Shown: piece by piece, positions 1 to 64,000 of the stretch
How the letters are laid out: each line of letters starts with the position of its first letter
Numbering within the stretch: the stretch's first letter is position 1
Source of the DNA: Stegostoma tigrinum
Taxonomy: Eukaryota
Direction of reading: 5' to 3'
DNA length: 64,000 bases
Assembly: GCF_030684315.1 (NCBI RefSeq)
Contig: NC_081387.1
Span: 10,994,822 to 11,058,821, forward strand
Made by a program: the position numbers and the translations under genes
The notes under the pieces: generated by a model
What the model was told of the DNA's origin: nothing
Database searches by the model: none
Seen by the model: only the letters and a program-made list of their open reading frames with translations

Positions 1-144
1 ACCCACTCTCTTGTGGACCGAGAGGAGCAGAGCGCTGTGTTGGAGGTGGAAGGAAGACTACAGGTTGGCTGTGCACCCTTGCAACCGGTGGATTTTAATG
101 CTGGCTTCGGCCTAACGCTGGTTCAGGGGAGCAGCCAACCTGCA

Positions 145-1612
145 ATGATGGCTGCGGCAAGTGCTCGTGCCCCAGGTCAGGGGGTCCGGAACACCATCCG
201 TGTTTCCGTTAAGAAGGTGGATGAAAGTGCACCTGTGGACCGCACATTCTTCATGAAGAGGGTCCTGTTGGACTGTTGCGGGTTCGCTGCTGCGGGCATT
301 TACTGCCTGCAGGATTTCCCCGGAGGAGGTTTTAACGATGTAACCTTCAGGAGTGCCAAGCTTTGCGAGCACTTCCTGGAGGGTTTCAAGGAGAAAGGAG
401 GTGAGGGCCCCCTCTCTGTACTGACCGCTGTCCCTTTGCTCGTGATGCCAGTGCAGAGGAGCTGTATGGTGACTGTACACATGAACAACACGCATGTGCC
501 AGCAGTTGATGTCCTGATCTTCCTTGGAAGGTACGCGAAGGTGGAAGGGGACCTAACCAACATCATGGACCCCTTCGGGGTCTGGACCAGTAAGAGGCAG
601 GTCAAGGTGACGCTGAGGATGGGGGCGGATGGGAACATTGTACACCCACTGTCCAGCTTCACGATCGGCGGGAGCAAGAGCTACCTGACCTACACAGGGC
701 AACCTAAAGTCTGTCATGCCTGTGGTAGGTCAGGTCACGTGGCGGCCAACTGCAAAGCCACCATCGGCAGGAACTGCAGGGAGGAGGGACACCTTGCAAA
801 GGATTGCCCACAAGAAAAAAAGCTGCAAACTTTGCGGGGAAGTGGGCCACCTCTATAGGACATGCCCACGGCGGGGGACCACCTACGCCCAGGTCGCCAG
901 CAGGGGCAATGCGGGGCCAGCCACCCCGGAGAAGAGGAAGGCACCAGGGCCCTGCAAGGACCCCACTAATGTGCAGGAGGGCCAGGTTGTGCAGGAGGGC
1001 CCAGCCCCGCAGGATGGGCCTGAGGCCAGCAAAGCGCCCCTGCAGGCTCCGATCCCCCCCGACAACGCGGAGTCGATGGAGGCAGTGACAGGCGACCCAG
1101 GGGAGTGGACGACGGTCTGGAAAAGCGAGGAGGAAGGCGTGTCAGCGGGCCCAGGCACCACAACCATCAGGCCGGAAGAGGCAGCTACAGGGGGGCTATA
1201 AGAGCTCCTCTGACGAGGGAGATTCAGAGAGGGCCCGGCCAAAGCAGAAGCTGAAGATCTCAAGGGAGAAGGAAAGCAGCACCTGGCTTCCAGGTGACGG
1301 GAGGCATCCTGAGGCTCCCTCCGACACCCAGTCACGTGCCGCTGGGGCCCTGGAGGGGCCCCGGAACTTCCAGGCGGGAAGGAGGAAACAGCACATCCCC
1401 AGCCTGACCCAGAGCCGGACTCTCCTGCCTCCGTACCCGCGACGGGGGGATGCCACCCGGAAGGCAGCATGGACGGTTTCCTGAGCCTGGAGATCGTCCA
1501 GCAGTTAGCCCGGGCAATGGGCATGAAGGGACAGATGGAGGGGCTGGACCTTGGACTTGGGGAGGGTACTGCGGTCACTGCCCACAATGGGAGTACGAGT
1601 TGCGAGCATTAA
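145..1612 (+). pseudogene. Tx1 ORF1 (gag-like zinc-knuckle protein of the ZCCHC3-like type), frameshifted
   Basis: ATG at 145 (MMAAASARAPG). Knuckles CHACGRSGHVAANC, GRNCREEGHLAKDC and, after a frameshift at the A-run near 815-821, CKLCGEVGHLYRTC. A Pro/Glu-rich tail can be followed through two more frameshifts to TAA at 1610-1612. Confidence 0.85.
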
Positions 1613-4600
1613 TGTGCGCAGCGTCAAGTCCACCACAAGATGTGTATCCACGTTGGCCTACCCGACCACTGTCAAGGCCTCCCGTTTCTGCAGGAGTACG
1701 GAATACTGCGCCTCAGCAGGTACGGGAAATGGTCCGGTGCCTGGACCTGTGGGCCTTCGATCTGGTCGGGTGTAATGACTGTCGCTTCTCGGGCCTGGCT
1801 CTTCTGCTGCGGGGGCGCAACTTCACCATCTCTCAAGTTCAGGAGGTGGTGGGGGGGCACCTCCTAGTGGCTGATGTCACCTACAGGAACGCTTCCCTGA
1901 GGCTGATCAATGTGTATGCCCCAGCGGTACGGAGTGAGCGGTTGGCCGTCCTGCGGCGGCTTCCACCCCTGCTGGCTACGTCCAGGCCGGTCATCCTAGG
2001 CGGAGACTTCAACTGCATCATCGATGCAGACGGAAGATCTGGTGTGGGGAGAGCGGGTGGGGGGAGTCAACTGGATGTCACGTCCAGATTCCTGATGGGC
2101 ATGGTGAAGGACGCCAAGCTGCTCGACATCTTCAGCACCCCTGCAGATGGAGCGCAGCGGAGGTGCACCTGGTCGCGGCCAGACGGGTCTATTCGCTCAA
2201 GGACAGACTTCCTGTTTGTGTCACGGGCGTTCTCGGTCAGGTCCACCGGCGTCGAGCCGGTGTTCTTCACTGACCACTGCCTCCTGCTGGCCGACTGTCA
2301 CTCACAGGATGACCAGCCGGCCGACAAGGGGACATGGAAGCTCAACACGACTCTGTTGACCCCAGAGAACATCAAGGAGCTTAAGAGGGAGTATGCCGGT
2401 TGGAGAACCGTGAAACCCCTCTTTGAGTCTCCGGGTGACTGGTGGGAGATGGTGAAGGAGAACATCAAGAGGTTCTTTGTCCTCAAGGGTGCTCGGAAGG
2501 CGAGAGAGAGGCGGGAAAAGTTGTCGCGAGTCCAGAAAAGGGTGCAGAACCTGCTCCTTCTGCAGCTAATGGGGGTCAATGTCACAGAGGACCTCCGTGA
2601 GGTGAGGAGCCAGCAAGCCTCGCTCTTCGCCGCGGAGGCCTCCAGGATAATCCTCCGGTCCAGGTTCCGCTCCGTGGAGCAGGACGAGACGTGCTCACGT
2701 TTCTTCTTTCAGAAGGTGCACAAAGAGTGCTCTGTGCTTAGCCGGCTGAAGGAGGACAACGGCTCAGTGACGTCGGCTCGGCCCGACATTTTGAGGATCA
2801 GCAGATCCTTCTATGCCGGACTGTACGACACGAAGCCCACAGACAGCACGGCCTCCGAGTCGTTCCTATCGTCTATCACGGAGGTCTTGGACGTCGGCAC
2901 GAGGGAGTGGCTGGACCGGCCGATATCTCTGGATGAGCTGACCGGAGCCCTCAAGTCCTTGGAGAGGAATAAGACTCCCGGGAGCGATGGCTTACCGGTC
3001 GAGCTGTATTCCGCTCTGTGGGACCTGGTCGGCCAGGACCTGCTGGAGGTGTACGATAGTGCGCTTCAGGCAGGGGAAATGTGCAAGTCCATCTGCCTCA
3101 GCAGCCTGGACCAGGAGAAGGCCTTCGACAGAGTCTCTCATGCTTACATGAGGGACGTCCTCTCCAAATTGGGGCTTGGGGAGGGCATCCGCAATTGAAT
3201 CCGGCTGCTCGACACCAACATCGTTAACACAGTCTCGATCTCTCTCCTGCCTTGTTCGTGTGCTGTGTGGAGCCCTTCGCTGCATCCATCAGGAAGGACA
3301 TGGGCCTGAAGGGCGTGACTATCCCAGGCAGCAGAGGCCTTCAGGTCAAGACCTCCCTGTACATGGATGACGTCGCCATCTTCTGCACCGATCGTCGGTC
3401 GGTGAGTAGGCTGTTGGACATCTGCGGCCAGTTTGAACTAGCCTCAGGTGCCAAAGTCAATAGGGGTAAGAGCGAGGTCATGTTCTTCAGGAACTGGGAC
3501 GACCGCTCCTTCATCCCCTTCACCGTCAGGACAGACTACCTGAAGGTGCTGGGTGTTTGGTTTGGTGGAGCTGGGGCGTGCACTAAGACTTGGGAGGAGC
3601 GTATTACCAAACTGAAGCAGAAGCTGGGCAGGTGGACGCTCCGGTCCCTCTACATCGCGGGTAAGAACCTGGTTGTCAGGTGCGAGGGGCTTTCGGTACT
3701 GTTGTATGTGGTGCAGGCCTGGCCTATTCCCTGGACCTGCGCCACTGTGGTCACCCGGGCCATCTTCCACTTCATTTGGGGGTCGGGGATGGACCGGGTC
3801 CGCAGGGACACCATGTGCAAAGACCTGGGAAATGGGGGAAAGGGCGTACCGAACGCCACCCTCGCCCTGATGGCTACCTTTGTGTGTGGCTGCATCAAGC
3901 TGAGAGTAGATCCTCAGTACGCAAACACCAAGTGTCACTACTTACTGAGGTTCTACCTGTTCCCCGTGTTGCAAAGGATGGGCCTAGCCTCGTTGCCGCA
4001 GAATCTCCGTGTAGTTGGACCATCCCGTACCACCTGTCCTTCATGGAGAAATTTTTGAAGGGAAACACCTTTGACCACAAGGCCGTCAGGCAGTGGTCAG
4101 CACGTAGTATCCTCGAGACCCTTCGGGAAAAGGAGAGGGTGGATCCCGTCATGTGGTTCCCCATGCAGACTGCCAAAGTCATTTGGCAGAATGCCTCATC
4201 ACCAGAACTTTCAAACAAGCACAAGGACATTGCTTGGCTGGTGGTGAGAGGGGTTCTGCCGGTGAGATCCTTTATGCATGCCCGGAATCTCTGCGCCACT
4301 GCACGCTGCCCTCGAGGCGGCTGCGGGGGGGATGAGACTGTCGATTACCTCCTTCTGGGGTGTGCCTATGCGCAGGAGGTCTGGAGGGGGATGCAGTGGT
4401 ATTTGTCGAGGTTCATCCCGAGCAGTTCCGTGACGCGGGACTCCGTGGTCTACAGGCTGTTTCCCAGGACGAACACCGAGACCAACATCAACTGCGCCTG
4501 GAGGACCATCAATGCGGTGAAAGATGCTCTTTGGCCTGCCCGCAACTTTTTGGTATGCCAGCTGAAAGAACTGACCCCAACCGAGTGTTGCAGACTGGCG

Positions 4601-4690
4601 CACTCCAAGGTCCAGGACTACGTGCTGAGGGACGCGCTAAAGCTTGGGGCAGCCGCCGCCAAGGCGCAGTGGGGAAAGACCACCGTATGA
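1587..4690 (+). pseudogene. Tx1 ORF2 (APE endonuclease plus reverse transcriptase), frameshifted, with two internal deletions
   Basis: Starts MGVRVASINVR at 1587. Endonuclease motifs FLQE, LINVYAP, ILGGDFN, TDHC. RT motifs KTPGSDGLP, LDQEKAFDRV, YMDD near 3360 and YLKVLGV. C-terminal CPRGGCGGDETVDYLLLGC. Pieced together from ORFs 1551, 1640, 1450, 3252 and 3680. Confidence 0.92.
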
Positions 4691-7066
4691 AACCCCTCGT
4701 CCAGAATAGAAAAAAGGGCCCTATCTGGTAACTGGGCCCAGCTGGCGCCTTCCCCAACTGGTCAGGGGGCCAACGGGGACTGTGCGGGGTGACAACTGCC
4801 GGGGTATTTTCTTTGCTTTGTGTTTTTTCTGCTTTGTTTGTTTTTTTTCCTTTAGTTGGTGTACGTACCCCCTGGGTAACCCGGAGCGGCTTTCATGACT
4901 GGGTAGGTGTATAAATATGTTTTATTTTTTGTACATCTTATGAATAAAGTATATTTTTTCAAATAAAAAAAGTGACAAAACATCTGAAAACTAACCTTCC
5001 AGCTCAGCGAGCAAACACATCCATAAAAATAATTACTTTAGTAATCTGATGTTCAACCATTCTGCTGAATTGAAGCTTATAGTTAATGTTTCACTGTTGT
5101 GTGGCTCTATTTGGTTTCACTTTTGAAAGAAAAATTGGCATGGAATGAGGAACAGATTGAAGACACTATGCTATTGTTTTAGCGATACAACACCAGGCCA
5201 AAGGGCCAGCCTTGTTCTCATTGATCATTTGTGAGAAAATGCAAACCACAAGGAAGAATATGAAAGAACACATCCTCAAAGCTTGTCAGCTCTTTATCAG
5301 CAACAAGTATTACTGCCTTGAAACAAAACCATGCAGATCTTAATCGGCTGTACTTTGCAAAAAATGTTTTAGAAGTGAGGCAAAGCTGTTGAACTAAACA
5401 CAATTTTTTGACATTGTATTTGAGTTAACTTTGTAACAATGTGTGTGGAAGTTTGTAATACTGTAAATAGGTATCAGACGTGATTATAGGTTAACTGAAT
5501 GTATCAGACATTTGACTAATTCATTCCATTTAAATACACTGTATAGCAATTTGTATATGTTTGAAAGTTGTGATATTCATTATCCAACATTATGAATATC
5601 GAATATACAAGCAATAGTTTAACTACATATTTTGTCATGAAAGTAATATGAACTCTATCCATGCATTCTAACACTGCAGTGCCGAAAACACTTCTCTTAA
5701 CAAGTGGCTTCGACGAAAGAACATGAGGTCAATGATTTGATGTGCAGTGAACATTGAGAACAATTAAGATAATGACCTCATTGTGGCCTTGCAACATTTG
5801 ACCCTCTGCCAGCACACGTTTCCCTTTGCAAACCAAATGCATAAAGAACAAGTCAAACTCTTTTAGCAAAACAATAACAATGAAATTTTAATGAATGGGA
5901 TGAGCCTATGGATAATTGACAACTTCAAAAAACTGGAGAAAGTTAGAGGTGCCAGAAGTTGCTACCTATCTCAATTCAAATCCCTCATTAGATCTGGTGA
6001 TTCCCTTAAATCAATAAACAATGAGCACCATCTCACCTCACTTAATCACAATGTAATGATGCAAGTAATAATGCTCTGTTTTGTGGCTTGGAAAGTGTTG
6101 ACCATTTCTGACAGAATTTCTCACTGGCAGAGGCAAGCATTAAGTTTAAAACTGAAGTTATCCCATCAAGTAAGTGTATACCTGGCTTTTCCAGATTCTG
6201 CACCTCCACCCCAAGTGATATTTATTCTCCACTGTTTTTAGGGACACGGACAGAAGCTGCAAAGGAGTCATGATAAAGTCTACATCCTCCTGTTTTACCA
6301 CAATGTTGGATGCTCAACTTGGGCTGATCCATGTTGTGGGACATTAAAGTGATAATCCTTATAGCAGGGGATAGGTAACTACTCTCTGTTAGGATCATGA
6401 AAGGTTGACTCTTCTGGTGCTCCAGTGTAATGTGCTAAATCTTCCTGACCTGAACTCTCAGCAGGAAAGAGCTAAGCTGTATTTATTTGGACTCTGACAT
6501 TACAGGCACGACTCCCAGGTGTTTTAAATCCAGCTCACGTACGAACGCTCATGCTATCATTAATAAATATGCAGGAGAAAAAAAACTGGATTAAACTTTG
6601 AAATATAAACTGTAACTTGGTATAAGGGTGCAAATCAAAAGGGAATCTTTTTTTTTCTTTCATTGATTATTTTATAGAACCATCTATTTATTTTCCAGCC
6701 ATTCTCAGTTTAAAAAAAAGAAACAGCAGTAATGTAATTTCAATGGGTGCTTGCGTATGTCTGGAAAAGATTTTGTGAATAGTGAAACCAGTGCGTGTAG
6801 TTTATCTTAAATATTTATACATGCTTATTATGTTCAACAAATAAATGCATTCTTGGTTAATATCATTTTCCCCGAGACCATTTTATTCACTTTCAAAAGA
6901 GAGATAACGGTTACTGGACTCAAAGGGACAAAGGAGGGTTTGGAAAGTAAAGAGATACAGGAGCATTTTTATAGAAAGTCTTGATATGAAAATTGACAGG
7001 CTTGGGGTGGGGAATGTTGGTAAATTCTTGGGAAAGCAGACGTTGGCAAATAACTAGAATTGGAAT

Positions 7067-15310: not shown

Positions 15311-16209
15311 TTAATTGATTAAATGAATAAAGGAAGTGACAGGATATTTCACAGCACTCTTGAACTGCTCTCGAAACTTAGACTGAGTTATCCCATAAAT
15401 AAATGTGTTTGTGCAACAACTTAATTCCACCAACATAATCCCAACTTCTCTAAAAATGTAAGTAGAATCACTGAAATATTTGGTATTAATCCCTGTAATT
15501 ATACAGAATAAGAAGTTGGTAGTGTACAAAAGCCACAGAAGTATAAAGTTGCCAGATATGGTGAAGAGTAAAATCACAGACTTCCTTCTGTTCTCCATTT
15601 CTGGGTCACTGCAATTCTCTTCTTTGTTCTTACCCCTTAGAGCCTTGCGCACTTGACTGACTATCATAATATATCTGACTGTAAACACATTGAACAATAG
15701 AATTAAAGCACATGGGAGTAATGGGGTTAAAATCTTATCAAACCAATCAAATGCTAACCATGCTGGGTCAGTATAATAGCTTCTCTTTAAATAACAGAAC
15801 CAAGGAACATTGTTAATTACCTCTCCAGGTTCAAAAGTGAAATAAGTTGATATATTTTTTAAACTGAGTACAACACACGTTGTAGAAAGAACTACAGATG
15901 CCGTTTTTTTGGTGCAATATTTAATTCTGAGCTTCTGGCAACAGATGGCCACCATTCGATCCAAGGAGAAAGTTACAGTGAACCATACAGAACTTTCTCC
16001 AGAAGTATGGAGTAGGACCATAACAACACTACACACAGGTGTGATTTCTAGGAAGGATCCTGGGAAATAATAGGAGAAGATGCGTAGTACGATGACCGCA
16101 GTGAAAATGAACAGCAGATCTGCCATTGCCATGGCCACTAGATAGCATGTAGTACACATGGAGAGATCAGACTTTCCCCGGGACAGGATCACAATTGCCA
16201 CTAAATTAA
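15311..16209 (-). CDS. Class A GPCR, GPR139/GPR142-like, gene 1, exon 2 (CDS = complement join 18673..18736 and 15311..16209; 320 aa)
   Basis: Open frame with hydrophobic helices and motifs YLVAMAMADL (TM2), SVWFTVTFSLDRMVAIC (TM3), LTPLLP (TM5), FILLW (TM6), CCTNTFIY (TM7) and KFREQF (helix 8). Acceptor ttttctttcttccag precedes TT AAT TTA GTG at 16209. Confidence 0.93.
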
Positions 16210-17384
16210 CTGGAAGAAAGAAAAGGCAGAGCAGACTGTAACTTAGTGACCATCTTTCTCATTGTCTTAACCCATCAAGATCAATCCAAAGTGAGAGGGC
16301 AGATCACAAGAAATGAATTCTACTGTGTTTCTGATTAACATAATAACAATGAAATATCTCAGAAGATTGTCATTGGAAAAACTTATTATTTTCAGTCTAG
16401 CTTAGTGTGAAGTGCTGTATTTTGGTTGAAAAAATATATAATAAAGGAGTATCAAATTAGACACGATCCTATTGAATGGCAGATCTTGCTCAGTGGAACT
16501 TCTCTTCCTTTTTCTTGTTGTGCAATTGCTTTATGACATTTTCAAACATGCTTTGCAAAATAAGAATCCAAATCAGTTCACTGGAACATATTAGCAATTA
16601 TTCAAAATCTAATTGTAGGTTATCTTGACAATAAACATGGAAATTAACTGAAGCTCTTTTGTGAACAAATGTCACTATACTATATGTTATGATAGTATAT
16701 AAAACTTAATTCATGACATAAGTTTTTTGTCTACTTGTTGAAAAGATGATTTTGATGAAATAAAGAAGCTGCTAACATTTTGAATGGTGTGGTGCTACAG
16801 CGGAGATAGATCTACATTATGTGCTGTCATTAACTCCTTACTAATACTTTAATTGTAGCCTTACATCTAATGCCTACATTATGAAATCTCAATATGTTTG
16901 TTCATCAGTTATCAGGATTCACTCTTCACATTTCATTGAGCTGAGAACAAAGTTTGGTGCAGGTTAAAAGCATGAAAGTGTGCATTCATAAATAAGGACA
17001 TTCATAAGTTTAATCATATTCCAAATGTGTTTTTAAAATACTTGCAATCAAATACTTAGTCTTTGCCATAGACAGAAAAAAACAAAATTCGCTTTAATGA
17101 TCACATGTTCAAAGCAATTCAATGTGAGATATGGAATGGCCAGTGATTTGGCATCATGACATTTTGATTAACCAAAGCCATTATCCAATGAGTTTGAGCA
17201 CAGTAATCATCTATACCCCCATTCTGTACCCTGTCAGTAAATATTTATCTTATGTCTATGTTTGAACAGGTCAATAAGAAAGCAGAGCAAAACTTATATA
17301 TTTCACTTAAGGTATCAGAAACAAACATCACCATTTAAAAGTGAATATTTTCCTCTCTGCTTCTGAATAAATTTAGAATACATA

Positions 17385-33546: not shown

Positions 33547-34388
33547 GTGAGTTACACTATTTTGTTGCACCATAATTTCAAATTGGGCACAACCCTCTGA
33601 CTTTTGACTGCTCAACCTATTACACTGACCTCCAACTTATCACGCATTACTGAGCAATGCCCACCATTAAGACTGCCTTCTCTCTTCCCAACTGAAACGT
33701 TTTTCTAAAGTCTCATTCTTTATGTTTCCTTCTCCCCAAAACTTTCAATCCTTGACATTTTCACATGGCCCTTAAGCTCTTTATTTTATCACTTTAGCTC
33801 CTTATTCCATTCTCATTCAGTCTCAGTGTTATCTGTTTCTGTTCTGAACATTTCTAACCTTGACATTTACCAGTTATCATGTTACAGTTGCATTATCTTC
33901 TTTTCTCTGTTTTTGATTGTTACTATTGATGTAATCTCGATTCTTATCTTTATATTCTAGAGTTATTCTGTTATACGTCAACATATCTTAGGCCTTATTT
34001 CTTCTCTGACTACCAACTAATTAAACAGTTGTTTTCTCTCGCAGTTTTTTTTTCTTATCTGCATTGTATTGTTATATTCTATTGTTTAATCTGGTTATTT
34101 TTGTATCCCTTCCTCGTTTCAATTGTTGGTGTCTCCTATATTTATAAAACTAATATCCTTCGTGTTATCCCACTTTAGCTGATGTGTTCAATTGATAGGT
34201 CAAAAGAAAATGAATCCTTAGATTCATTCATTAGACATTGCAATATCAATGAGAAAATCATTAGCACAAACTTCAGAAGATGATAGATTAATACAAGTGT
34301 TGAATGTTAACCTAGCGTTACCACAGTTAATGTTTACTGTTGATTCCAGCTATTTATTGACTGTTTTTATTTTGATTCTTTTCCACAG

Positions 34389-35314
34389 TTAACTTGATCA
34401 CAATTGTGATCCTGTATAAGGGAAAATGTGGTCTATCCAAATGTGTAACTCAATACCAAGTGGCGATGGCGACAGCAGACCTCATGGTGATCATTTGTAA
34501 TGTGATAATACACAGGATAGTTGCACTATATCATTGGAATTTTTTACCCATTTACACTTCTGTGTGCAGACTCATTCTATTCCTCTCTCCAACTGCCGTG
34601 GACGTTTCTGTTTGGTTTACAGTTGCCTTTACCTTTGATCGATTTGTAGCCATTTGTTGGCAGAAGCTGAAAACAAAATATTGTACTGACAAAACTGCTA
34701 CTCGGGTTATCATTCTACTGCATCTTTTCTTTTGCATAAAGAACATTCCATGGGCTATCTTGCATGTTTCTCAATTAAAAATTGACAATATACCACGAGG
34801 TTGCATAGAATCACCTGCAATTTACATTCAGTTTGCAGGGATGGCATTTTCTTGGTTAGATCAGCTGTTAACCCCAATTCTTCCATTCTTTTTGATGTTA
34901 ACCTTTAACATCCTCACAGTTAGACATATTTTAATGGCCAGTCATGCTCGAAGGAACCTTTGGATCCATAAGAGGGGGGAGAAGGATGAGGACCCTGAAA
35001 TGAAAAGTCGGAGAAGGTCCATTGTTTTACTTTTTGCAATATCTGTCAATTTCCTCCTATTGTGGATTATAACAATTGCATATTTCTTTGATTTTCAAAT
35101 TAAAAGCTATTTTAATCGCAGATTTCTAATGAACAAATTGGAAAATTTCAAAAATGTGGGCATCATGCTACAGCTTCTGAGCTCCTGCACAAACACTGCG
35201 ATTTATGTAGTGACCCAGAGTCGGTTCAGAGAGGAGCTGTTGAATATCCTGAAATGTCGCTTTGCTCTTGTTAGAAAACAGACTGATGAAAAAAGACGCT
35301 GCAATGAAAACTGA
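34389..35314 (+). CDS. Class A GPCR, GPR139/GPR142-like, gene 2, exon 2 (CDS = join 33477..33546 and 34389..35314; 331 aa)
   Basis: Acceptor ttcttttccacag precedes TT AAC TTG. Motifs VAMATADL, SVWFTVAFTFDRFVAIC, LTPILP, DPEMKSRRRSIVLLFAIS, FLLLW, SCTNTAIY and RFREEL. No internal stops. Confidence 0.93.
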
Positions 35315-58794: not shown

Positions 58795-59355
58795 TAATTC
58801 ATTTGTGGGATGAGGGATCACTGACTAGGCCAGCATTTATTGCCCATCTCAGAGGGCAGTTAAGAGTCAAGTACATTGCTGTGGGTCTGGAGTCAGATGT
58901 AGGCTAGGCCAGATAAGGATAGCAGTTTCCTTCCCGAAAGAACCTTAGTGAAACAGATGATTTTTTCTGACAATGGACAATGGATTAATGGTCATCATTA
59001 GACTCTCTTAGTTCCAGATTTTAATTGAATTCCAATTCCACTATCTGCTGTGGCAGGATTCAAACCCAGGTCCCCGGAATTTCACAGATAACACGGTGTG
59101 AAGCTGGATGAACACAGCAGGTCAAGCAGCATCAGAGGAGCTGGAAAGCTTGACATTTCAGGTCAGGACCCTTCTTCTTCCCTTTTTCTGAAGAAGGGTC
59201 CCGACCCAAAACGTCAAGCTTTCCTGCTCCTCTGATGCTGCTAGGCCCACTGTGTTCATCCAGCTTCACACAGTGTTACCTCAGATTCTCCAGCATCGGC
59301 AGTTCCTACTGTCTCCCCAGAACATCACCTGGGTCTCTGGATTAACAGTCACTAG
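58795..59355 (-). mobile_element. tRNA-derived SINE (second family) interrupted by a Penelope-like insertion
   Basis: Reverse complement of the 50755 SINE, split at about 59080-59313. Confidence 0.85.
59080..59313. mobile_element. Penelope-like inverted pLTR pair
   Basis: Arms at about 59085-59177 and 59187-59313. Degenerate TSD tccccggaa (59071-59079) and tccccagaa (59314-59322). Confidence 0.85.
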
Positions 59356-60585
59356 GAACAATAATATGGGATCTTGAGAAATGGTGGATACTTGAATGTT
59401 AAACTGAAGTATGCAGTAGCCACTTGACATATGAAACTAGCTTAAAACGCAAAAATCATTGGGGAATGGTTCTTGTTGAGACAGACATACTAAAAATGAA
59501 CTAAAGATGACTGAATTTTAAAAGAGCTAGTGAAATCTGGATGTTTGCCTGAAGGCTATATGCAGAGTTAGAGGGTTGCTCATAATTTTGAAATAAACTT
59601 GCCAAAAGTAATTACGAAACTTTGATATTATAGTGCATCTGCGCAATCACTAAGGTCTCACCTGCAGGCTGTTAATCCATCATCCTAAATGTGTCATGGC
59701 TTGTAAAGAATTTAGCAAAATCTTATTAGAACATTTGATTTGATGAAATCTCTGAACTAATTAAGGGAGTGATTTGTATCTTTATAAAGTTGTTATTTTG
59801 AAGAGTTATATATTTGATCCCAGGCTTCTAAAACTGAACGAGAATAGGAGAAAAAAGTGTTTTTTTTCTCTTTTTTGCAGAAAACCCAAAGTTGTAGGTT
59901 TTGCACTTAACTGAGTTTTAAGCTACAGAATTGTTATCGATATTATCTTTTATTTGAAAAGATGATGTGTTGGGAGTACTTTAAATAAGTTTGTGGTTCT
60001 TGTGGAGACTCCAGATGATTCTCTGCTTTTGGTACTTTGTAGAATTTTAAAATTCAACTGTTTTTACCACAAATCAACACATATTGTTTATTTTTACATA
60101 ATTATTTGCGAATGAAACTACAAAGCATTTTCTTTCTGGCTGTGGTCATGAGATGAGCTTGGATTGTCTACAGAATTGAGGGAAGAGCATTTGTAGTGAT
60201 GTGTTCTCCTTCAATTCCTGTCCAATCACTTTTTGCATTTGTTAGGGATCCTTCCTTGACTTTATTCCTGTCCTCAAATAAGTCTAATCAGGGACTCTAA
60301 CCTAATATTGGAGAGTGAGAGATAAAATAGACAGGTCAGGGACATGAGTATTAAAGACTTTAAATAAATCAGGGACTTAAATCCGGCCAGACTGGCATTG
60401 TTTGCAGTGATTTCCAAATTAGCCTGTGAAAAACGACTCTCGGGATTATCGCGATATATTGTAACGAAGCTGTTAAGGTTTTAGAATGTTGTGAAGGTTT
60501 GTGGAAGTCGATAGTTTGCTGTTCGTTGACAGATGGTTGATCAGTGAAAGTTTTGGGTCGAGATTATAAAAGGAGATTGTTTAAG

Positions 60586-61011
60586 ATGTGTAATAGTATA
60601 GATAAGATGGACGATCCGTCTTCTTCACTGGTGAAACTATGTGAATAGTATCCGGATAAATCTGAAAGCCTGCGTGAAGTTTCTGGCGCCTTAAATAAAA
60701 AATTAGGTGATGGACATTGGCCACTAGGCAGCCTCAACAGTAATTAATTCGTTAAATCAGCCCAGCGATGAAACATGGGCTCGAAAAAAGAAATGAAAAA
60801 ATTGATTGGACTGTGGCGACAATTTTGCGACGAAAGCCACAAACAATTGGTATTAAATTCATGGCTGGAGCCTGCCACCAAATTGGGAATTGAACTGACT
60901 GACGATGGTACCATAAAATTAATTGAGGTCCTCAAAAACAAATGTACTCAACTCAAATGTCAACAGGAACAAAAAGTGATTGGTGTTCCTATTGGCTCCT
61001 CGCACCCCTAA
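60586..61011 (+). pseudogene. Matrix-like ORF upstream of gag (142 codons, 3 in-frame stops)
   Basis: MCNSIDKMDDPSSSLVKLCE*YPDKSESLREVSGALNKKLGDGHWPLG...MKKLIGLWRQF..., colinear with the gag N-terminus at 61321. Confidence 0.6.
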
Positions 61012-61320
61012 GCAGAAGTTGCGTTTAAAAAGCTCGGAGGTTTGAGTCCCCCAGTGGCAGGAAAAGTGAAAAAAAAATCTGGAGGTTCGCGATAAAAAAT
61101 ATATAAGTCTGGAGGAATTAGTATAAGACTGGTAAAGTAGAATAAGTATTCGGCTATAAGTATAGGATAAGTACAGTGTCTGTCTGTCTCAAACTCTCTG
61201 CCTTAGACCGGTTTTTAAGAGGGAAATCCCCGCACGAAGGTCGGGACTGTGAAGTGGGTGTTGAGACCAAGGACACTGGTGTAGTAGATAGAAATAAGCA
61301 ACAATGTAAAAGCGCTAAAA

Positions 61321-61545
61321 ATTGGTTAAACCTCGGATAAATCCAGGACTGGTGTTCCTCTACATCGAATGTGCCGAGGTAATTCTGAGGATAGGAAGCG
61401 AATCAGACGTCTGTCGGCACGCCTTAATAATAAATTAGGGAATGAAATTTGGCCAATAGGGGGAACCTGAGATGTAGATAAATACATAAAAGTGAAAGAA
61501 GCAATTTGAAAATGCAATTCAGGGACAAAATTGAAGAACTTTAAT
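61321..61545 (+). pseudogene. gag: gag remnant (matrix region)
   Basis: IG*TSDKSRTGVPLHRMCRGNSEDRKRIRRLSARLNNKLGNEIWPIGGT*DVDK. att ggt taa is two substitutions from MGQ, and WPxxGT is typical of class I matrix. Confidence 0.65.
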
Positions 61546-62400
61546 ATCCATGTAGAGAAAAACTGCTGAGGAAATAACGAACAAATCTAAACTGGCGAGT
61601 TGGGAGAATAATGCATGTCGAAGAGGGATTAGAGTATGTGATTATGAGGGAAGCTTTAAATCGTGGGATGCATTGAAGGAGCAGTATGGGGAGTAAAGCA
61701 GAACAGGAAATGCGGAATAAAGAATTAGGAGTAAAACACCAGACTGAATTACCGTACGGAAATAAAAAGGAGGTGCCTCCTGACATATCTGTCTTGCTGA
61801 TGTTGTTCCAAAGTAATGACATAAATGAGTAAGACAAGCAGGACTGGAGAAGGAAGTAGGCTACTTAAAATAAAGTGTTACATGCAATGCAGATTATGTG
61901 GTACATTAGAACATGCAGAGATTCTGCCAATACAGATCTGATGAATTGGTTTAAACTCCCTGTTAACAATGCAGAGATTTAGCTGGGTTAGAAGTGCCTT
62001 ATAATACAGTATCAAGGGGCTATTTCCTAGCAGAAGTTGTTTTAAAAGAATACAGTAACCCTCCTTTGGTTGCCCACGTCGGGGTACTGGAGGAATACAG
62101 TTCCTTCATGTAGTCATTTTCAGATTAAACATCAGTAATGCATTTGTGCTGTTGTCTGGCACACCACATTTTAGTTACAGCCATAAGATAAAGAATACAA
62201 ACCCACGGCTTGTACAGACCATATGTCCTGTCGTACAAGGCTTAAAACTAAACAGAGAAACAGGAGACTGAATACAGAACAGACTGTGGACAAAAGGAGG
62301 GAGGGCAGGATTCTTCTAAAACTCACAGGGGAGGCCTTAAAAAAAAGCCTCCTCAGGTACTCCCATCCAGAATTCCCTGTATGTTAAAACCCTTGTCCAG

Positions 62401-63579
62401 GCAATCCTCTTCCCTAAACAATTGGCTATTATCAAATGCGCTGCCCATGCCTCCTGTATTTATTTAGGGTAATGCTTGGGTTGATCAGGCTGCCACAGAT
62501 CAAACTTTTATTGTGCCCTCTATGAGCAAGCAGATCATAAATTGCTTACCTCCTTCCAACATCTCAAGCATGCCAGATATTGTCACTGTTCAGTGTTTAC
62601 AGGGGGTCGCCCCTGACTCTGAAAAACAATTATGGAAGGCGCGTGGGTGTTGGCGCTCTGCGTCAAAAGGCCTCTGGGTCATTCCACTTGGCCAAGTGTG
62701 TATACCTGATGCTTTGTTATCAATGCTTATTGACTGGTCAAGGAGTGCGGTGCGTAACAGGAAACACTCTTGCCAGGTAGTCTATTTAAGAGCATTAGCT
62801 TGATTTTATTGAATTGCCACGTGTACATTGCTATAGGTATTGTCTTGTTACTGTTGATGTATTTAGTAGAAGAATCGAGGCCTTCCCAACCACTCATAAT
62901 GAAGCCTCGACGGTGGTAAAATTACTACTGACAGAAATCATACCAAGATTCGGGGTACCTCGACAGATTAGTTCAGACAATGGCCTCCACTTTATTGGGG
63001 ATATTGACGATGAAATATGTGCTCATTTTGGGATCTGCCGCCAACTTCATTGTGCGTATCACCCTCAGACTGCGGGGCTTGTAGAACGCTGTAACCAAAC
63101 TTAAAAAAACTAAACTTGCCAAATTGACTTCTGTGACCAGTCTCTCCTGGGTTCAATTGTTGCCTCTGGTCTTATTCCACCTGCGTTGCACTCCCATGGG
63201 CAAAACTCGCTTGTCCCCAGCCGAAATCATTTACTGTTGAGCTTTCCGGGGATGATGCCCTTTCCCCTGTTCATTTCTACCACGTGACTGAAGACATCCT
63301 CCTGTATTCTTACTTCAACTAAAATTTTGTGAGGTCTTCACTCCCAGTCCTTGCTGCCTATGAGAAGCTCCCCTCCCTGACACTGTTCCAACTGTTGAAC
63401 CCAGCTCCTTCGTTCTCATCAAGAATTGGATGCGCCGCGGCCTCCAACCTCGATGGGAAGTCCCCTTCCAGGTTCCCCTCACCACCCCTACTGCTGCTAA
63501 GGTCGCTGGGCGCTCCGCCTGGGTTCACTTCCATCATTGCAATGTCATCGGTCTAGCCCCTTCCGAAGCGGGGAGATGA
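62401..63579 (+). pseudogene. pol: pol remnant: RNase H C-terminus plus integrase
   Basis: AILFPKQLAIIKCAAH and GNAWVDQAA; LDFIELP...VDVFSRRIEAFP...SSDNG-(D-X35-E)-YHPQTAGLVERCNQT; SWVQLLPLVL, LSPAEIIY; PRWEVPFQVPLTTPTAAKVAGRSAWVH. Protease and RT were not found. Confidence 0.9.
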
Positions 63580-63740
63580 AGGAGATGGAGACGATGAGGG
63601 ACTGGGGAAGGAACCAGAATCAGTTGGTTACAGACCAGACTCCTAAGATACAACCAAAACTGCATGTTTCGAATAATAATTCTTCTTTTGTTTTAGATAT
63701 CCTACTCCTTGCCCCAGGACGACCAGAAGGAATCTCCCGG

Positions 63741-64000
63741 CCATTCTAGATTCTCCTGCCAACACCAACAGCTGCCAAAGTCCAGAGGACAGAGCCGCTG
63801 GATTCACCTGAGTGATTGTAAACGATGGGCCCCCGCAAAAGGATTAAAGCCTGCTATTGGGCTTTCCATTGTCATGGCTGCCTTTACAGCATTAAGCCAA
63901 AAGGACAATTTGTTTTTTATGGCTCATATCCTTTTATGTGGAAACCGCACTGTGTGTCACCCACTTGCCCTGTCAGTAGAGGCGTTATTTGCAACCACCC
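63741..64000 (+). pseudogene. Second integrase-CTD-like segment running into a probable env N-terminus
   Basis: PF*ILLPTPTAAKV, then a +1 frameshift, then GQSRWIHLSDCKRWAPAKGLKPAIGLSIVMAAFTALSQKDNLFFMAHILLCGNRTVCHP, open from 63787 to the window end. An acceptor-like tcttcttttgttttag ends at 63696. Confidence 0.55.

Follow-up and report, generated by a model that had tools for sequence, protein, structure and literature searches.

The window analyzed here, the whole 64,000-nt stretch from Stegostoma tigrinum, ends inside a class I endogenous retrovirus (ERV), decayed and present in multiple copies, whose internal region covers 60314-64000 on the forward strand (+) and runs past the window end. 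No 5′ LTR was recognized in this copy. In the sequencing run X1, contigs reach a depth of 29-47 over the flanking 59501-60168 and of hundreds or thousands from about 60314 onward; the runs X1 and X2 belong to a single study, possibly the source of the assembly. When the element was scanned with Pfam in three frames, with stops read as X, the only significant matches were the integrase catalytic core (rve) and an integrase C-terminal domain (MLVIN_C), and no match was obtained for capsid, protease, or reverse transcriptase (RT). These three domains are probably gone or beyond recognition, and on this basis the ERV family appears to be non-autonomous. The copy in the window is dead.

The gag side of the element includes two N-termini at 60586-60750 and 61336-61500 (+), similar to each other with 12 of 34 residues identical (BLASTP e-value 3e-7) and also recognizable as a DNA repeat (D2). 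We take these two gag starts, at 60586 and 61336, to be matrix-like; the Pfam scan did not confirm the label, and atlas searches with two segments from the gag side yielded no usable result. In some X1 contigs, 60659 is joined to 61420, and 26 letters separate the two. A stretch near 61890 is presumably a zinc knuckle, and the end of RNase H presumably lies within about 400 nt after it (about 61950-62350, +). Protease and RT seem to have been deleted, and the deletion may be family-wide, because contigs from other copies bridge 62067-62445.

Several features were recognized outside the ERV. The first 4700 nt of the window (1-4700, +) are GC-rich, and the long frames there (up to 596 codons) resemble a non-LTR retrotransposon. 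Two frames without introns, 312 and 315 codons long (34376-35311, +, and 15314-16258, -), look like GPCR genes. At 59086-59281, a very high-copy host repeat occurs as an inverted pair, with 92-nt arms that are 88% complementary and 12 nt apart. No tRNA gene was found in the 64,000-nt window.

The integrase catalytic core is represented by a fragment at 62799-63101 (+; rve, e-value 2.4e-14). It is followed by the element's own integrase C-terminal SH3-like domain, designated here as CTD1 (63403-63546, +). CTD1 is a full member of the murine leukemia virus (MLV) type, matching Pfam MLVIN_C (PF18697) with the e-value 1.7e-12 and 47.3 bits, above the curated cut-off of 29.2, and the resolved MLV integrase C-terminal domain (2M9U) with the e-value 3.8e-9. 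The pol/CTD1 frame ends with …VPFQVPLTTPTAAKVAGRSAWVHFHHC and the stop codon 63577-63579, as the earlier note on this DNA had described. Downstream lies a purine-rich spacer (63580-63680, +; A 0.38), in one frame of which an acidic tail can be read. Three ATGs (63576, which overlaps the pol stop, 63585, and 63594) are in the frame of the first half of the next feature.

A second, broken integrase C-terminal domain, designated as CTD2, is located at 63681-63822 (+), offset by 278-279 nt from CTD1. The earlier note had reported a diverged copy at 63738-63819. That copy is confirmed, and its block (63738-63822) is split over two frames by a stop codon at 63747-63749 and a frameshift near 63783; the proposed start was too late, as the homology begins 57 nt earlier, at 63681. 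The alignment with CTD1 is ungapped from SSFVL (63681) to PTAAKV, with 16 of 34 residues identical, and 4 of 10 residues are identical in a further block. CTD2 has no unbroken frame fused to the integrase core, since the CTD1 stop lies between them in addition to the stop at 63747 and the frameshift. With X placed at both breaks, CTD2 matched positions 25-52 of the 56 in MLVIN_C at 20.4 bits, short of the 29.2 required (e-value 4.2e-4), 2M9U with the e-value 0.004, and CTD1 with the BLASTP e-value 1e-9. The profile match that the earlier note had asked for is thus present, albeit weak. The DNA local score between CTD1 and CTD2 is 58, which was reached by none of 2000 shuffles (maximum 45). The profile, BLASTP, and shuffle results together show that the resemblance is real. 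Unlike CTD1, CTD2 scores under the cut-off, carries a stop and a frameshift, and lacks the L.PRW segment of the MLV domain. It is therefore described here as a homologous relic, not a member domain of PF18697.

The substitutions between the two domains are unevenly distributed. TPTAAKV and PF are common to both. In TPTAAKV, third codon positions differ at 5 of 7 sites and first or second positions at 0 of 14. In the conserved half, pS is 0.59 and pN is 0.26 (24 codons, P 0.019), a synonymous signal that is inflated because this block was picked for similarity. The middle 15 codons of CTD2 show chance identity to CTD1 (11 of 45 nt; pN 0.66, pS 0.74), with L.PRW lost there. The dN/dS is 0.42 over all 44 aligned codons and 0.27 in the core. 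In CTD2, 14 of 34 codons have A at the third position, vs 9 of 71 codons in the frame of CTD1 (P 0.002). The synonymous excess and the differing third-position A suggest that both domains diverged as coding sequence, which fits an origin from two viruses.

A predicted env splice acceptor, composed of a pyrimidine tract and TAG, occupies 63681-63696 (+), on the first strand of CTD2. The earlier note had pointed out this polypyrimidine-AG, and it is present: by a home-made crude score, the AG at 63696 ranks first among the 247 AG sites of the element, and 9 of 4303 sites in the whole window, itself included, score as high. A second acceptor-like AG, ending at 63717, ranks second of the 247 by the same crude score. 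An acceptor-like site is found at almost the same place in CTD1, ranked 7 of 247. The five residues SSFVL encoded in the tract all match in the register set by PTAAK; among the 924 pyrimidine-rich 15-mers in the window, at least three of these five residues are found in 24, at least four in 2, and all five in 1. Because the ungapped register with CTD1 extends back into the pyrimidine tract, the tract belongs to CTD2 and encodes the first strand of the domain. The env acceptor of MLV likewise lies inside integrase-coding sequence.

Splicing at 63696 is predicted. The best 15 of 589 rows of junctions all came from the host repeat near 59,100-59,350. In run X8, the type of which is unrecorded, the summed contig depth is 449 at 63676 and 1724 at 63705, with zero in the flank 59501-60168; contigs cannot reveal RNA level or starts, and this step near the acceptor is a lead only. 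X1 and X2 have no upward depth step between 63676 and 63705. One X1 contig alignment starts exactly at 63697, for which a variant between copies is an alternative cause. Splicing of the env mRNA is standard among retroviruses, and the acceptor of porcine endogenous retrovirus (PERV) was located between pol and env, according to the available text of PMC5932395.

The frame downstream from the acceptor (63697-63999) is open in this copy and contains AIGLSIVMAAFTAL and DNLFF..NRTVC. The segment at 63844-63900 (+) is a putative signal-peptide core of Env, showing the top 11-residue hydropathy of the frame (2.35), and it is aligned with the N-terminal hydrophobic segments of the relatives described below. 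It is followed by the N-terminus of the surface subunit (SU), recognized by tblastn (63901-64000, +; NLF…GNRTVC.P..SVEALF), which is cut by the window end 33 codons into SU. The whale-shark Env P0009 is aligned from its residue 7 at 63844, so that its Met1 maps on the ATG at 63825-63827 (+), and both start with MG. This ATG, the likely env start codon, lies 26 nt past the conserved Trp codon of CTD2, overlaps the CTD2 tail, and is in a frame different from the WIH block of CTD2. This is how pol and env are arranged when the start of the latter overlaps the end of the former. A break between 63825 and 63844 puts the ATG out of register with the signal core in the window copy, and it is because of this break that the last block of CTD2 seems to read into the signal core.

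An exhaustive phmmer search of 1.84 billion proteins with the env-side frame returned three matches, two of which are Env proteins carrying matches to TLV_coat and to GP2-like HR1-HR2 heptads. The third match, a bacterial PPR protein, was dropped as chance. Word-index protein searches, which covered longer proteins only, gave nothing for the env-side frame (41 candidates) or for CTD1 (55 candidates). A profile of three Env proteins recovered 13 proteins at the e-value 1e-10 or below among 8000 scored candidates, including proteins from sawshark, horn shark, and whale shark. In tblastn, 12 of 13 relatives matched 63838-63999 in the env frame (e-values 9e-12 to 3e-4), the best being a whale-shark member with 63% identity over the last 52 codons of the window; when the 13 were compared with the window, no alignment reached upstream of 63838. 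The proposal of the earlier note that the downstream frame is env thus gains support from 12 of 13 relatives, and the frame after CTD2 is, by homology, env. Loci of this Env family were absent from the viral contigs, metagenome contigs, and prokaryote genomes scanned.

Ten of the 13 proteins recovered by the profile keep their N-terminus. The NLF motif is at residue 24-35 in nine of them, which thus begin 23-34 residues ahead of it, and at residue 173 in one, behind a hydrophobic N-terminus of its own. The CTD motifs PTAxK and WxH..C were found in 0 of 21 proteins of the family. All of these are gene calls, from which a leader exon could be missing, although RefSeq models account for four of the proteins that keep an N-terminus. 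The relatives, such as Pristiophorus UPI00398EB15E, Rhincodon XP_048454915.1, and Heterodontus XP_067871035.1, share homology with the env frame of the window and, unlike the window copy, are open frames beginning at the signal peptide.

The transmembrane subunit (TM) of this family has CX6C followed by Ile in 17 of the 17 relatives in which the motif was found, and the immunosuppressive domain (ISD) in 18. The family is thus not a canonical CX6CC gamma-type Env as defined in the available text of PMC9967133. The CX6CC candidates surveyed in 10.64898/2026.05.06.723177, as far as its available text describes them, differ from this family, which has CX6C without the third cysteine. Surveys demanding CX6CC would overlook this shark Env family. 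In the relatives P0002 and P0004-P0023, cysteines flank a hydrophobic stretch after a furin-like site, and the TM is similar to filovirus GP2.

One further protein, P0017 (XP_048473945.1, Rhincodon typus), annotated in RefSeq as "erythropoietin receptor isoform X1", is a fusion. An Env ectodomain belonging to this family and 92% identical to P0009 makes up residues 1-402 and is joined to the transmembrane and membrane-proximal region of the erythropoietin receptor (EpoR; matches to 2MV6, 2MXB, and 6E2Q). If the transcript is real, the fusion recalls the env-mpl fusion of the myeloproliferative leukaemia virus, and the product could be a ligand-independent receptor; it could also be a gene-model artefact.

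Other copies of the element carry CTD2 as well. Diverged versions at 63705-63713 were found in 13 contigs of X1, 5 of X2, and 6 of X8, at depths like those of the upstream element, and so the absence of CTD2 from other family members, which the earlier note had raised as a possibility, is not observed. Substitutions in these copies are located at 63676, 63705, and 63713. The variant at 63705 turns the third codon after the acceptor into a stop and, counted in depth units, makes up 660 of 673 in X1, 80 of 80 in X2, and 1724 of 1724 in X8, as well as 5 of 5 reads in run X5. The frame described earlier as stopless from the acceptor onward is indeed so in this copy, but nearly all depth elsewhere has the stop. 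A contig of X8 that covers 63725-63981 has three gap letters, each of them placed away from the frameshift in CTD2; since its gaps are all accounted for elsewhere, the frameshift seems to be common to another copy. The 63705 stop and the shared frameshift suggest that CTD2 is non-coding in the family. A length difference between the ATG and the signal core was seen, among 12 of 140 rows, in one contig each of X1 and X8 and in none of X2, and a contig with this difference has a second one further on. Most copies may keep the broken register, as would be expected from an already defective master. One X2 contig tracks the window to 63700 and then continues for 345 letters unlike the window, from which it follows that some copies differ past the acceptor.

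The earlier note had offered two readings of this locus, an Env leader derived from the SH3-like integrase domain, and the scar of an env swap in which the pol end of the donor came along. The scar is the best fit and is regarded as probable: env would have arrived together with the pol end, the acceptor, and the start codon of its donor. In this scenario, CTD2 would be the non-coding pol end of another class I retrovirus, carried in with its env. A template switch would have connected the recipient, immediately beyond the end of its pol, with a site upstream of the donor CTD. Both the acceptor and the env start of the donor would have lain within its CTD-coding sequence; this stretch would have been needed as RNA (3′ splice site, 5′ leader, and start context) and no longer as protein, and its reading frame could have decayed while the RNA signals persisted. 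Env would then be translated, beginning at the ATG 63825, from an mRNA spliced into position 63697 (or 63718), and its signal peptide would be an ordinary one, about 26 residues long. The swap is favored because the whale-shark Met falls on an ATG inside the CTD2 tail, in the layout of a pol/env overlap, because the Env relatives begin at the signal peptide and are free of CTD motifs, and because the acceptor belongs to the CTD sequence, CTD1 having an acceptor-like site at nearly the same place. Frequent incongruence between Pol and Env in fish and amphibian ERVs, reported in the available text of 10.1101/2021.11.23.469661, points in the same direction. The earlier note had named three observations against itself, a downstream sequence other than env, family members without CTD2, and a CTD2 with no profile match to the integrase domain; none of these was made.

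The leader derived from CTD2, which would need a start codon supplied by an upstream exon, is unsupported and highly improbable. It would account for the WIH block and the signal core lying in one open frame in this copy with no ATG ahead of the core, the second acceptor at 63717 opens in that frame beyond the stop of the other copies, and a length difference in the interval is unlisted for most copies among the 12 of 140 rows. Against it, none of the 21 Env relatives, RefSeq models included, has such a leader, and the homologous Met falls within the CTD2 tail itself. About 13 last residues of the CTD are in the env frame, too few for a fold, and CTD2 as a whole is spread over two frames with a stop. 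In addition, MLV, ALV, and HTLV have short Env signal peptides, about 21-64 residues, in the available text of PMC9967133. Nor is the doubling easily dismissed as a chance resemblance, an error of the assembly, or a rearrangement that this copy alone has undergone, explanations that are largely refuted and retain scarcely any probability. The Pfam score of CTD2 under the curated cut-off and the X2 contig unlike the window after 63700 would be in their favor, but the DNA score unmatched in 2000 shuffles and the BLASTP e-value of 1e-9 contradict chance, and the 5-13 contigs per run with diverged 63705-63713, whose depths resemble those elsewhere in the element, contradict a private event.

The more serious rival, though still rather unlikely, is an old internal tandem duplication of the 3′ end of pol with a period of about 278 nt. 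The integrase role would have stayed with the upstream copy. The downstream copy would have retained the acceptor and the start of env but not its frame, by which the overlap between pol and env was uncoupled. The 34-codon ungapped register between CTD1 and CTD2 is consistent with it, and the shared TPTAAKV and PF would be expected of duplicates as well as of close kin. The dN/dS of 0.42 over 44 codons is near the expectation for one freed copy and could thus be obtained from a duplication as well as from a swap. The matrix-like domain is also doubled in the same element, which may therefore be prone to internal duplication; either such a tendency or a single replacement of the gag-pol core would explain both doublings. 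On the other hand, the changes in TPTAAKV (none at first or second positions vs 5 of 7 at third positions) indicate a long coding divergence of both copies, and the third-position bias differs between CTD1 and CTD2. Fresh direct repeats are also efficiently deleted during reverse transcription, which counts against a duplication. A further point to be weighed against the swap is that the register between the ATG and the signal core may be broken in most copies, which would make the start unconfirmable from them.

CTD2 could also have been kept as a gene. A small accessory gene starting at ATG 63576, which overlaps the pol stop, would have a frame of about 85 codons ending in a stand-alone SH3-like domain, and this is considered very unlikely. 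Its frame stays open over 57 codons, which has a chance of about 0.035 in a single frame, and the substitutions at 63676, 63705, and 63713 in other copies add no stop to it. Nevertheless, it is interrupted by the stop at 63747 and the frameshift near 63783, the latter apparently present in another copy, its middle 15 codons have lost L.PRW at pN 0.66 and pS 0.74, and the ORF alone has no Pfam match; the ATGs themselves can stem from Asp/Glu codons of the acidic tail in the neighboring frame. A broader proposal, distinctly unlikely though not negligible, is that the second integrase tail was retained on purpose, either as a stop-start-coupled SH3-like accessory protein or as a splice-and-start module, with the doubled matrix marking the other end of one replacement of the gag-pol core. 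A gag-pol core would then have been dropped into the shell of another virus, leaving a matrix stub on the 5′ side and the CTD and env on the 3′ side.

Recombination between pol and env is known from related systems. Chen et al. (10.1101/2021.11.23.469661) described, in the text available, recombination between pol and env as frequent among the ERVs of fish and amphibians, epsilon-like pol combined with gamma-type env being one of the cases. Further reports are found in 10.1101/2024.07.05.601823 and the reviews PMC10536682 and PMC3758190, and shark ERVs and Env genes have been described in PMC4422223 and 10.64898/2026.05.06.723177, each as far as its available text goes. With the anamniote ERVs of 10.1101/2021.11.23.469661, which combine gamma-type Env with epsilon-related pol, the element in the window has in common a class I-type integrase CTD ahead of an Env that carries ISD and heptad repeats, here in a cartilaginous fish. 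Recombination was recognized there from tree incongruence and genome layout, and the word "integrase" is absent from the main text, so no second CTD is described in that part of the paper. RD-114, type-D betaretroviruses, and XtERV-S are alike in combining a foreign env with another gag-pol (PMC10536682, PMC3758190, 10.1101/2024.07.05.601823). The element in the window differs from them, as they appear in the available texts, in that tandem integrase tails are retained, such as an offset junction leaves, and in that both partners look class I; the anatomy of the junction is not given in those portions of the accounts. In the main texts searched, which included few subscription papers, no account of two integrase CTDs ahead of env was found, although genome maps in figures and supplements may show such a case. 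Env exchange in fish ERVs is thus already known, and for this particular scar no report was found.

The locus is a dead copy, and no new protein is shown by it. The feature is real, and is best read as the seam that a known process left in an ERV family that is dead and appears non-autonomous. The exchange of env among fish retroviruses is usually inferred from conflicting trees. If the pol end of the donor has been retained here, the junction itself is available together with a piece of donor pol, which would allow the donor to be assigned to a lineage and the event to be put in order. The retained pol end also suggests that the unit exchanged in an env swap consists of the acceptor, the leader, and the start codon together, with the CTD sequence dragged along. 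If tandem CTDs prove to be common, they would be a cheap marker of past swaps.
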